Of a stretch of 64,000 nucleotides of DNA, positions 13,756-54,475 are shown piece after piece. This DNA comes from Escherichia coli. Lineage in GTDB: Bacteria; Pseudomonadota; Gammaproteobacteria; Enterobacterales; Enterobacteriaceae. The translations under genes were made by a program, and so were the position numbers. The notes beneath the pieces are model-generated. The model searched no databases. It saw only the letters and a list, made by a program, of their open reading frames with translations, and was not told the origin of the DNA. The DNA is taken from the NCBI RefSeq assembly GCF_003790525.1, contig NZ_CP033635.1. One strand, 5' to 3'. The stretch's first letter is position 1. Each line of letters opens with the position of its first letter.

Positions 13756-14403
13756 ATGTCCGATAACGCTCAACTTACCGGTCTGTGCGACCGTTTTCGT
13801 GGTTTTTATCCTGTTGTGATCGATGTTGAAACAGCCGGATTTAATGCCAAAACCGATGCGCTGCTTGAGATTGCCGCCATCACCCTGAAAATGGATGAAC
13901 AAGGCTGGCTGATGCCGGACACCACATTACATTTCCACGTCGAACCATTTGTCGGCGCAAATTTGCAGCCAGAGGCCCTCGCCTTCAACGGTATTGACCC
14001 GAACGATCCCGATCGCGGCGCGGTCAGCGAATACGAGGCGCTGCACGAAATTTTTAAAGTTGTACGTAAAGGCATTAAAGCGAGCGGCTGTAACCGCGCC
14101 ATTATGGTGGCGCACAACGCCAATTTCGATCACAGCTTTATGATGGCCGCCGCAGAACGCGCCTCACTGAAACGTAACCCGTTCCACCCTTTCGCCACTT
14201 TTGACACTGCTGCACTGGCCGGGCTGGCACTCGGACAAACCGTATTGTCAAAGGCTTGCCAGACCGCTGGCATGGACTTCGACAGCACCCAGGCGCACTC
14301 CGCGCTGTACGACACCGAACGCACTGCTGTGCTGTTTTGTGAAATCGTCAACCGCTGGAAACGTCTGGGAGGCTGGCCGCTACCTGCCGCCGAAGAGGTG
14401 TAA
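13756..14403 (+). CDS. rnt: RNase T
   Basis: 215 aa [32 protein letters not shown]... DEDD exonuclease, recognised as Rnt. Confidence 0.95.
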
Positions 14404-22696: not shown

Positions 22697-22861
22697 GCCT
22701 TATCTCCACCTCTTCGCGTCATTACGCGGTATTCATTAAAGTGGCGAAAGCATGACAGCAATCACAAAAAAATGAAAATAACAAAAAGAGAAAACACTTT
22801 TGCCATTTTGCTAACAAACAGGAAGGAGATGCGAGGGAGAACGCGCTCCCTCGAGAGGAAA

Positions 22862-22951
22862 TCAGTGCAGCGCGGCAGTCAAACCCACGGCCACGATCAA
22901 ACCGAGGACGATAATCGTTGTTACCAGTGAAAATTTAAGGTCGGTGCTCAT
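22862..22951 (-). CDS. ynhF: 29-aa small membrane protein
   Basis: ATG 22951 with AAGGAG RBS 7 nt upstream; translation MSTDLKFSLVTTIIVLGLIVAVGLTAALH, stop TGA 22862..22864; below the ORF-track size cut-off; matches the YnhF I recall; hairpin 22832..22853 follows. Confidence 0.7.
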   Translation of the reverse strand: MSTDLKFSLVTTIIVLGLIVAVGLTAALH

Positions 22952-23189
22952 CAAGTTTTCTCCTTTTTTATTACCACACAAAAAGTGATATTACGCATTT
23001 TTACACACTGTGATGAAAAAATCTCCCGTCATTTATAATGATAAGTGTTTTTACCACTTCCCCTTTTCGTCAAGATCGGCCAAAATTCCACGCTTACACT
23101 ATTTGCGTACTGGCCATTGACCCCTTCCTGACGCTCCGTGTCGTTTTTCCGGCGTACCGCAACACTTTTGTTGTGCGTAAGGTGTGTAA

Positions 23190-23205
23190 AGGCAAACGTT
23201 TACCT
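23190..23205. promoter_or_regulatory. PurR operator O1 (AGGCAAACGTTTACCT)
   Basis: 16-bp match to pur-box core GCAAACGTTT, 45 bp upstream of purR ATG. Confidence 0.6.
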
Positions 23206-23249
23206 TGCGATTTTGCAGGAGCTGAAGTTAGGGTCTGGAGTGAAATGGA

Positions 23250-24275
23250 ATGGCAACAATAAAAGATGTAGCGAAACGAGCAAACGTTTCCACTACAACT
23301 GTGTCACACGTGATCAACAAAACACGTTTCGTCGCTGAAGAAACGCGCAACGCCGTGTGGGCAGCGATTAAAGAATTACACTACTCCCCTAGCGCGGTGG
23401 CGCGTAGCCTGAAGGTTAACCACACCAAGTCTATCGGTTTGCTGGCGACCAGCAGCGAAGCGGCCTATTTTGCCGAGATCATTGAAGCGGTTGAAAAAAA
23501 TTGCTTCCAGAAAGGTTACACCCTGATTCTGGGCAATGCGTGGAACAATCTTGAGAAACAGCGGGCTTATCTGTCGATGATGGCGCAAAAACGCGTCGAT
23601 GGTCTGCTGGTGATGTGTTCTGAGTACCCAGAGCCGTTGCTGGCGATGCTGGAAGAGTATCGCCATATCCCAATGGTGGTGATGGACTGGGGTGAAGCAA
23701 AAGCTGACTTCACCGATGCGGTCATTGATAACGCGTTCGAAGGCGGCTACATGGCCGGGCGTTATCTGATAGAACGCGGTCACCGCGAAATCGGCGTTAT
23801 CCCTGGCCCGCTGGAACGTAACACCGGCGCAGGCCGCCTTGCCGGTTTTATGAAGGCGATGGAAGAAGCGATGATCAAAGTGCCGGAAAGCTGGATTGTA
23901 CAGGGTGACTTTGAACCTGAATCCGGTTATCGCGCCATGCAGCAAATACTGTCGCAACCGCATCGCCCTACTGCCGTCTTCTGTGGTGGCGATATCATGG
24001 CAATGGGCGCACTTTGTGCTGCTGATGAAATGGGTCTGCGCGTGCCGCAGGATGTTTCGCTGATCGGTTATGATAACGTGCGCAACGCCCGCTATTTTAC
24101 GCCAGCGCTGACCACGATCCATCAGCCAAAAGATTCGCTGGGCGAAACGGCGTTCAACATGCTGTTGGATCGTATCGTCAATAAACGCGAAGAACCGCAA
24201 TCCATTGAAGTGCATCCGCGGTTGATTGAACGCCGCTCCGTGGCTGACGGCCCGTTCCGCGACTATCGTCGTTAA
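23250..24275 (+). CDS. purR: purine repressor (LacI family)
   Basis: 341 aa [36 protein letters not shown]... recognised as PurR. Confidence 0.96.
23278..23293. promoter_or_regulatory. PurR operator O2 (GAGCAAACGTTTCCAC) inside purR codons 10-15
   Basis: second pur-box core GCAAACGTTT within the purR coding start, consistent with known purR autoregulation. Confidence 0.6.
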
Positions 24276-25204
24276 TCACCCGTTGCGGGAGTCTCTTCCG
24301 GCTCCCGCAGCCACTCCTTATTCAGCGTCTCACTATCGCCGAGATACTCAAGCAACCAGGTTAACGCAGGCGACATATCATTTTGCTGCCATGTCAGACA
24401 ACATGCCGAATCCGGGAAGGGGTTTTCCAGTTCTAGTGCTACCCACTTCCCCTCATTAAGCCACGGTTTGGCGAAATGTGTTGGCACCATCCCTATGCAT
24501 AATCCTGCCGAGATACAGGTTGCCGATGATTCCCAGTCAGGCACGACAACTCTTTTTTGGTTATCCAGCAACCAGGTAATACGTTTAGGTAGCGTTCGCG
24601 AGGTGTCTTCGCGCACCAATGACGGCCAGTTGCGCAACGTATCATCGCTGAACGGGCCATCCATCAACGCCAGCGGGTGGTGACTGGCAACAACGCAACT
24701 CCAGCTTAGCATCCCCATATCCCGGAAGGCATAACGACCACCTACCGGAATCGCGCGTGTTGCGCCAATCGCCAGTTCCACGCGCCCGTCGGAAAGCGCA
24801 TCCCAGACACCGTTGAACACTTCCTGAAAGACAAGAAGTTCGACATCATCAAAATGGCGATAAAAATCAACGATCATCTGCCGTGTACGTTCTGGCCTGA
24901 CAATATTATCCACTGCGATAGCTAACTGACCGCGCCAGCCGTTCGCTATCTGCTGACATTGCTGCCGGGTGATCTGCATTTTTTTGACAACAGAGCGCCC
25001 TTCTTTGAGAAACCACGCCCCGGCAGCGGTCAGTTCCACATCACGGTGACGTCGTTCAAACAGCGGCACCGCCAGCCACTCTTCCAGCTGACGCACGGTA
25101 TAGCTGACCGCAGAAGGAACGCGATGCAACTCCTGTGCCGCAGCGCTAAAACTACCATTACGCGCTACCGCATCAACAACTTCGAGTGAATATTCTGACC
25201 ACAT
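24272..25204 (-). CDS. punR: LysR-family regulator
   Basis: 310 aa ORF with N-terminal HTH ([42 protein letters not shown]...); recognised as YdhB/PunR; 4-bp stop overlap with purR. Confidence 0.88.
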
Positions 25205-50623: not shown

Positions 50624-51034
50624 TCACAAAATGGCGGTCGTCAATCGTGACGAACAGCACAAACGCCCTTTCTCATCGAAGATTTCAATCTGCCAGACCT
50701 GGTGACGCGAACCGAGATGCAACGGTTTGCATACGCCGCGCACCCGCCCTTCTCGTGCCGAGCGGACGTGGTTAGCATTGATTTCCAGACCAACCACCTT
50801 TTGCTCACCTTCGGTACATAAATAACCGGCAACGGAACCGATACTTTCGGCCAGCACCACAGACGCGCCTCCATGCAGCAACCCGAAAGGCTGCTTTGTC
50901 CGGGAGTCTACTGGCATTGTCGCTTCAAGGGTGTCATCACCAATATGTTCAAAGCGAATATCCAGCAACCCCACCATGTTTCCTTCACCCATAGCATTCA
51001 ATGCTTCCAGGGTGATTTTTCGTTTCCATATCAT
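50624..51034 (-). CDS. menI: hotdog-fold thioesterase (1,4-dihydroxy-2-naphthoyl-CoA hydrolase)
   Basis: 136 aa ORF MIWKRKITLEALNAMGEGNMVGLLDIRFEHIGDD...; start overlaps ydiJ stop (ATGA). Confidence 0.9.
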   Translation of the reverse strand: MIWKRKITLEALNAMGEGNMVGLLDIRFEHIGDDTLEATMPVDSRTKQPFGLLHGGASVVLAESIGSVAGYLCTEGEQKVVGLEINANHVRSAREGRVRGVCKPLHLGSRHQVWQIEIFDEKGRLCCSSRLTTAIL

Positions 51035-54087: not shown

Positions 54088-54475
54088 TATATTGACCCTT
54101 TCCTGCGGTCTGTGATGTAGGTCGATACACTGTTCTTTCAGGCTGCTGCAATAGCGCACTGAAAGGTGATGTTTGTTTACTCTATGGATTTCGTGTTGCA
54201 GGAAGGCGGCAAGCGAGTGAACTCCAGGAGCTTACAATAGTAAGTGACTGGGGTGAACGAACGTAGCCGCAGCACATGCAATTTGAAATACGACGAGTAA
54301 ATCGTTTGCGTGTTGCCTGAGTTGTTGTACCACATTTTTTTCTAACACGCCCATCAGAATTAAGGGCAGAATCGGCCTGTTAAAAACCGCTGAAATTGCT
54401 CATCATTATGCAGGTGAGTTTCGCGTGTTCACGTCGCGTCGACGATTTGACGCACAAAAAAGGTGAAAAGTAGTT

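Follow-up and report, generated by a model that had tools for sequence, protein, structure and literature searches.

Paired PurR operators at the purR gene of Escherichia coli, one upstream of the ATG and one within codons 10-15

Operators of the LacI family are occasionally placed inside genes. The lac operator O2, which lies within lacZ, is one example; it loops with lac O1 through tetrameric LacI, whereas PurR is a dimer and the spacing of the two purR operators is not conserved in phase. Sites within coding sequence make up less than 1% of LacI-family sites (PMC4052901). The intragenic PurR operator of purB is likewise a pur box within coding sequence; lying downstream of the promoter, it represses by halting elongation, a roadblock that was demonstrated experimentally according to papers citing He & Zalkin (1992). 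purB has one operator, far inside the open reading frame; purR has two, one in the untranslated region and one at codons 10-15, in the gene of the repressor itself. Cho et al. (2011) state that at both purB and purR the binding of PurR within the open reading frame stops elongation.

The purR operators of E. coli K-12, here called O1 and O2, have been described. Both exact 16-mers are among the known RegulonDB sites for PurR (PMC2585596, Table 2), and the title under which Rolfes & Zalkin (1990) is cited refers to two purR control sites downstream of the start of transcription. A PurR ChIP-chip peak at purR (1,735,528-1,736,095) was seen only with adenine, and its motif, AGGTAAACGTTTGCCT, is O1 on the opposite strand; the resolution of the experiment cannot separate O1 from O2 (Cho et al., 2011). 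A statement that cites Ravcheev (2002) has the autoregulatory site absent from purR of the Vibrionaceae and Pasteurellaceae.

In the 64,000-nucleotide stretch of E. coli DNA analysed here (the window), the same 16-mers occur in the same gene and at identical distances from its ATG. O1 is reportedly bound about sixfold more tightly than O2, binding to the two is said to be non-cooperative and autoregulation is said to amount to a two- to threefold effect. The K-12 coordinates place O2 28 bp past the ATG and O1 88 bp upstream of O2 (PMC5110547), as is the case here; the window comes from another strain, and the element itself is without difference.

Regulation of purR by O1 and O2 is textbook-level E. 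coli biology and its confirmation mainly shows that real operators can be recognized from raw sequence, a modest gain. Our additions to the known record are the conservation across 80 species, the synonymous optimum at O2 and a lineage-specific origin of O2 linked to Asn12; together they form a small, testable addition.

The purR locus and its two pur boxes

The coordinates of the features are collected in Table 1. The open reading frame encodes a protein of 341 residues, which matches the NCBIfam PurR equivalog NF007979 over its full length (residues 1-341) with 711.1 bits against a cutoff of 501, and matches the purine repressor chains of PDB entry 1PNR and related entries with E = 9e-231. 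Annotation names purR at the matching locus in 5,425 E. coli genomes and gives the gene order cydH - purR - punR. These three lines of evidence agree with the name that an earlier note, made from the sequence, had given to the gene. The 1.7 kb around the operators are 100% identical to E. coli SMS-3-5, and this stretch is found in 5,425 of 5,426 complete E. coli genomes.

Table 1. Features of the purR operator region (positions in the window)
Feature	Position	Strand	Description and basis
Conserved non-coding block upstream of O1	23058..23156	+	90-100% conserved columns in a 20-species alignment; the purR promoter presumably lies here
purR operator O1, pur box AGGCAAACGTTTACCT	23190..23205	+	Starts 60 bp upstream of the ATG; top matrix score; RegulonDB site; ChIP-chip motif
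purR Shine-Dalgarno GGAG	23237..23240	+	Inside the invariant block GGTCTGGAGTGA; 20-species alignment
purR coding sequence	23250..24275	+	LacI-family purine repressor; regulated by the repressor that it encodes; open reading frame, annotation, NF007979, PDB
purR operator O2, pur box GAGCAAACGTTTCCAC	23278..23293	+	Within codons 10-15 (RANVST); RegulonDB site; conservation
Codon 12 AAC (Asn), centre of O2	23283..23285	+	AAC in 80/80 species; Gly (GGN) in purR outside the Enterobacteriaceae

Both operators are 16 bp imperfect palindromes close to the pur-box consensus ACGCAAACGTTTGCGT and carry the central CG. The 10-mer GCAAACGTTT occurs exactly twice in the window, at 23192-23201 and 23280-23289; shuffled windows hold 0.29 copies on average, and two or more copies were present in six of 100 shuffles. 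The earlier note had placed two pur-box cores at purR, one upstream of the start codon and one in the coding sequence; its coordinates, core and ATG are all correct. It had read them as the two-operator autoregulation of purR. This interpretation is supported by the RegulonDB entries, by the match to the control sites of Rolfes & Zalkin (1990) and by the PurR ChIP-chip peak, and the pair is thus an already known feature.

A PurR weight matrix was built from 11 other published PurR sites, with both purR sites excluded; its training sites score between 14.4 and 22.5 bits. O1, at 20.0 bits, is the best match in the window, a score reached in none of 40 simulated windows. O2 comes fourth with 13.5 bits, and about 1.2 sites of such strength are expected by chance per 64 kb; it could not, therefore, be called from its score alone. 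We regard O2 as real because of its place in the gene of the repressor, 88 bp from O1, its conservation and its presence in the published record. Two further matches, at 50717 with 13.8 bits and at 13785 with 12.9 bits, are no more than chance would supply, given the roughly 1.2 hits per window expected at 13.5 bits and above.

The second-best match of the window to the matrix, with 15.4 bits, is AGTAAATCGTTTGCGT at 54296-54311, between the starts of the divergent genes ydiJ and ydiK; the site is identical in K-12, at 1,768,894. A PurR ChIP-chip peak was reported at ydiJ/ydiK (1,766,545-1,767,225 in older K-12 coordinates), for which no motif was given (Cho et al., 2011). After a coordinate shift of about 1,983 bp the site falls inside this peak, which makes it a candidate for the missing motif. 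The adjoining segment, 54190-54295, resembles an intergenic repeat of the ERIC/IRU type; it is single-copy at the megablast level and present in 4,254 of 5,426 E. coli genomes, the region being polymorphic.

Conservation and codon constraint at O2

For comparison we used the purR loci of 80 Enterobacteriaceae species, the proteins of which are 92-100% identical. All 80 have an O1-type site at -57 to -60 that scores 12 bits or more; the score is at least 20 bits in 71 of them and the lowest three values are 12.3, 16.9 and 17.7 bits. At the position of O2, GCAAACGTTTCCAC is kept in 78 of the 80 species; conservation of the intragenic site was a check that the earlier note had named beforehand. 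Within E. coli, 5,337 of 5,424 genomes match the 141 bp operator region at 99% identity or better.

Codon 10 starts at 23277, and the frame reads CGA for Arg10, GCA for Ala11, AAC for Asn12, GTT for Val13, TCC for Ser14 and AC(T) for Thr15. Since the RANVST peptide is invariant among the 80 species, conservation was compared at synonymous sites. The third positions of codons 11-14 have an entropy of 0.05 bit, compared with a mean of 1.01 for the gene, and rank first in conservation among 280 sliding four-codon windows, with GCA in 79/80, AAC in 80/80, GTT in 80/80 and TCC in 79/80 species. The peptide has 4,608 synonymous encodings, for which the median pur-box score is -1.2 bits. The best of these, GCGCAAACGTTTCCAC, scores 16.0 bits and is exactly the O2 of 44 of the 80 species; the E. 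coli version, with CGA, is in the top 0.6%, and the observed O2 versions lie within the top 0.09-0.6%. O2 is thus kept at, or close to, the strongest pur box that the RANVST peptide permits. The unconstrained consensus scores 25.4 bits. The codons of Ser14 and Thr15 fix the right half of O2 as TTTCCAC rather than TTTGCGT, which makes O2 the weaker of the two sites. The proposal that the second box spans the RANVST codons and constrains them is borne out by the codon-level reading and, quantitatively, by the entropy rank and the near-top synonymous score.

Could the same codons have been frozen for another reason? Constraint on the mRNA near the start, through masking of the Shine-Dalgarno sequence or codon choice at the 5' end, might hold codons 11-14 and yield the pur box as a by-product. 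Several codons outside the box are indeed near-invariant (2, GCA; 5, AAA; 16, ACA, in 79/80 species; 19, TCA, in 80/80), and RNAalifold pairs the Shine-Dalgarno region with codons 14-17 and forms a GAAACG/CGUUUC stem across codons 8-14. The start region is, however, predicted to fold no more stably than shuffled versions of itself (z = -0.35; 64 of 200 shuffles were at least as stable), and compensatory changes were seen in none of its 18 predicted pairs. Constraint of this kind does not predict a matrix optimum among 4,608 encodings, and RegulonDB lists the site for PurR (PMC2585596). We therefore consider this explanation, under which O2 would not be a selected operator, very improbable, and start-codon mRNA structure as the main cause of its conservation was rejected on the z score and the lack of covariation. 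Still less credence, practically none, is due to a chance match produced by the codons of a conserved LacI-family peptide. The peptide is invariant and a 13.5-bit score should turn up about 1.2 times in 64 kb, as such an accident would require, but the observed encodings stand near the top of a distribution centred on -1.2 bits, the synonymous sites are frozen in 80 species, orthologues with Gly12 are without the site and O2 is in the published list of PurR sites. Selection for a PurR operator accounts for O2 in our preferred reading.

Some codon preferences near the box are recorded here in their own right. Codons 16 (23295-23297) and 19 (23304-23306) are near-invariant synonymously although they lie outside the 16 bp box, and in the predicted fold, which is not significant, codon 16 pairs through its third base with the Shine-Dalgarno region. 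The codon of Arg10 (23277-23279) is CGC in 44 species, CGA in 34, CGG in one and CGT in none; elsewhere in purR, CGT makes up 32% of arginine codons and CGA about 1.4%. The missing CGT at codon 10 could reflect avoidance of GalR binding or plain shared ancestry.

Mode of repression

Very probably, O1 and O2 are the published autoregulatory operators of purR, at which independently bound PurR dimers impede RNA polymerase downstream of the promoter. In the mechanism that we propose, PurR with its corepressor, hypoxanthine or guanine, would place one dimer on each 16 bp pur box, on O1 in the untranslated region and on O2 in codons 10-15. With both sites downstream of the purR promoter, the bound repressor would meet RNA polymerase that has already begun and would act as a roadblock to elongation rather than by occluding the promoter, resulting in modest negative feedback on the synthesis of PurR. 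Binding, occupancy in ChIP and the need for both sites are drawn from the literature; the sequences, matches, conservation and synonymous selection are our observations. In the literature covered here the roadblock was demonstrated for purB; at purR itself we infer this step, together with independent binding.

A scan of 22850-24450 for consensus promoters returned no sites, and manual inspection of the conserved blocks upstream of O1 gave no convincing -35/-10 pair. Our literature searches found no operator positions relative to the start of transcription.

PurR is known as a dimer without the C-terminal tetramerization helix of LacI. This argues against cooperation of O1 and O2 through a DNA loop of the kind formed by lac O1, O2 and O3, even though two operators about 88 bp apart are at a distance that allows looping in other LacI/GalR systems. 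The centre-to-centre spacing also varies, from 85 to 88 bp among the 80 species, and a difference of up to 3 bp is about one third of a helical turn; the conserved helical phasing that marks the looping operator pairs of lac and gal is not seen at purR. Dimeric PurR and the variable spacing together speak against phase-dependent looping, which we judge to be highly unlikely; binding to each site is most likely independent of the other. The GalR/GalS operator consensus is GTGNAANCGNTTNCAC, and the right half of O2 (TTTCCAC; CGTTTCCAC) fits a half-site of the GalR type. GalR binding was detected by ChIP-chip at ynhF/purR with a score of 9.5 and validated by ChIP-qPCR, and the inferred sites, GTGGAAACGTTTGCT and AGGCAAACGTTTACC, are O2 on the opposite strand and O1, respectively (PMC5110547). 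The operators might then serve mainly, or also, GalR, and tie galactose regulation to purR. The arrays of the same study, however, gave little or no change in the expression of these genes, with no GalR-dependent change reported (PMC5110547), the left halves of both operators are of the PurR type (GCAAACG), and CGT at codon 10, which would yield the near-consensus GalR site GTGCAAACGTTTCCAC, is used in none of the 80 species. A role as GalR operators is unlikely on this evidence and would in any case be compatible with autoregulation by PurR. Part of the conservation of O1 and O2 could serve GalR; its binding is an overlay on PurR control and not a replacement for it. Repression by independently bound PurR remains the reading that we prefer.

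Other elements were noted upstream of O1. In the cydH-purR interval, at 22980-23025, 20 genera share the strongly conserved blocks AAAAAGTGA...CATTTTTACACA and AAAAATCT of non-coding sequence, with the inverted repeat TGAGC-TT-GCTCA in the first block in most genera other than Escherichia; these blocks are possibly the cydH (ynhF) promoter or the site of a regulator on the minus strand. Directly upstream of O1, at 23155-23179, is a small hairpin, TACCGCAACACTTTTGTTGTGCGTA, the arms of which resemble pur-box half-sites. Its stem, (C/T)GCAA(C/T)...(G/A)TTGC(G/A), can be formed by most of the 66 distinct enterobacterial sequences, in which the loops vary and some C-G to T-A changes occur. When the species were folded separately the signal was weak (mean z of about -1), and RNAalifold returned only three uninformative pairs upstream of O1, MAFFT placing the variable stems out of register.

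In E. coli HB101 (record NZ_CP178859.1; our L093, 2600-3810) an IS30 element is inserted within purR at about codon 7, equivalent to about 23269 in the window. The insertion parts O1 from O2 and substitutes for the native 5' end of purR.

Distribution of O2 and Asn12

Eight other genera of the Enterobacterales (Erwinia, Pantoea, Providencia, Yersinia, Xenorhabdus, Hafnia, Pectobacterium and Serratia) have Gly12, within RAGVST or HAGVST. O2 is absent from all of them, the corresponding position scoring zero or less. Among 120 PurR homologues the split is clean, with Asn12 in those at least about 87% identical to E. coli PurR and Gly12 in those at 85% or less. The single exception (L090) is 80% identical yet has Asn12, an E. 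coli-like gene order and both operators intact. A further locus (L091) has an intact O2 and a weak O1, and another (L092) retains Asn12 with a decayed O2 (GTA TCA, 5.0 bits). A tree of PurR proteins was calculated by a fast distance method with residues 8-17 masked; carriers of Asn12 were monophyletic in 200 of 200 bootstraps and formed the sister group of the Erwinia/Pantoea branch.

In this reading frame the pur-box centre GCAAAC/GTTT can be obtained only from asparagine, encoded as AAC. The maximum pur-box score with Asn12 is 16.0 bits, the best for any single residue, against 5.5 bits with Gly12. O2 and Asn12, which is always AAC, have a single origin at the base of the Enterobacteriaceae. 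Six of the eight outgroup genera have a weaker form of O1, GCAAACGATTAACA (ACGCAAACGTTTAACA in Pantoea), located between -60 and -77; in the same scan no O1-like site was found in Providencia or Serratia microhaemolytica. O1 is the older of the two operators.

Asparagine is not exceptional at this turn position, and a proposal to that effect was rejected: among 121 LacI-family representatives the residue is glycine in 80 and asparagine, the second most common, in 18, three of which are fragments of enterobacterial PurR. Aspartate and serine, the one-step intermediates, also occur there. Given how common asparagine is at this position in the family, the change from glycine is structurally ordinary; it may have occurred first by drift and then enabled O2.

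We put forward tentatively, as a possibility with the odds somewhat against it, that O2 is an innovation of the Enterobacteriaceae which arose once, together with G12N in the turn of PurR's own helix-turn-helix, and that selection on the operator fixed this residue or now maintains it; the distribution is observed, whereas the direction of cause goes beyond the data. A limited search of the literature found no description of the coupling between O2 and Asn12. The codons at O2 have two jobs, the DNA site standing at the synonymous optimum within codons for the DNA-binding motif of its own binder. O2 can be dated to the base of the Enterobacteriaceae and has a candidate partner in the protein, the change G12N; this makes it a handy system for studying how intragenic regulatory sites constrain the evolution of proteins. 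The locus also bears on why some lineages use two roadblock sites and their relatives one weak site or none.

In the Gly12 lineages (L082-L089; Erwinia, Pantoea, Yersinia, Pectobacterium, Hafnia and Xenorhabdus) a hairpin also separates the O1-like site from the Shine-Dalgarno sequence, 30-60 bp before the start codon of purR. Its sequence differs among them and the pairing is preserved, as judged by eye; an example from Erwinia is GTTATCAG...CTGATAAC.
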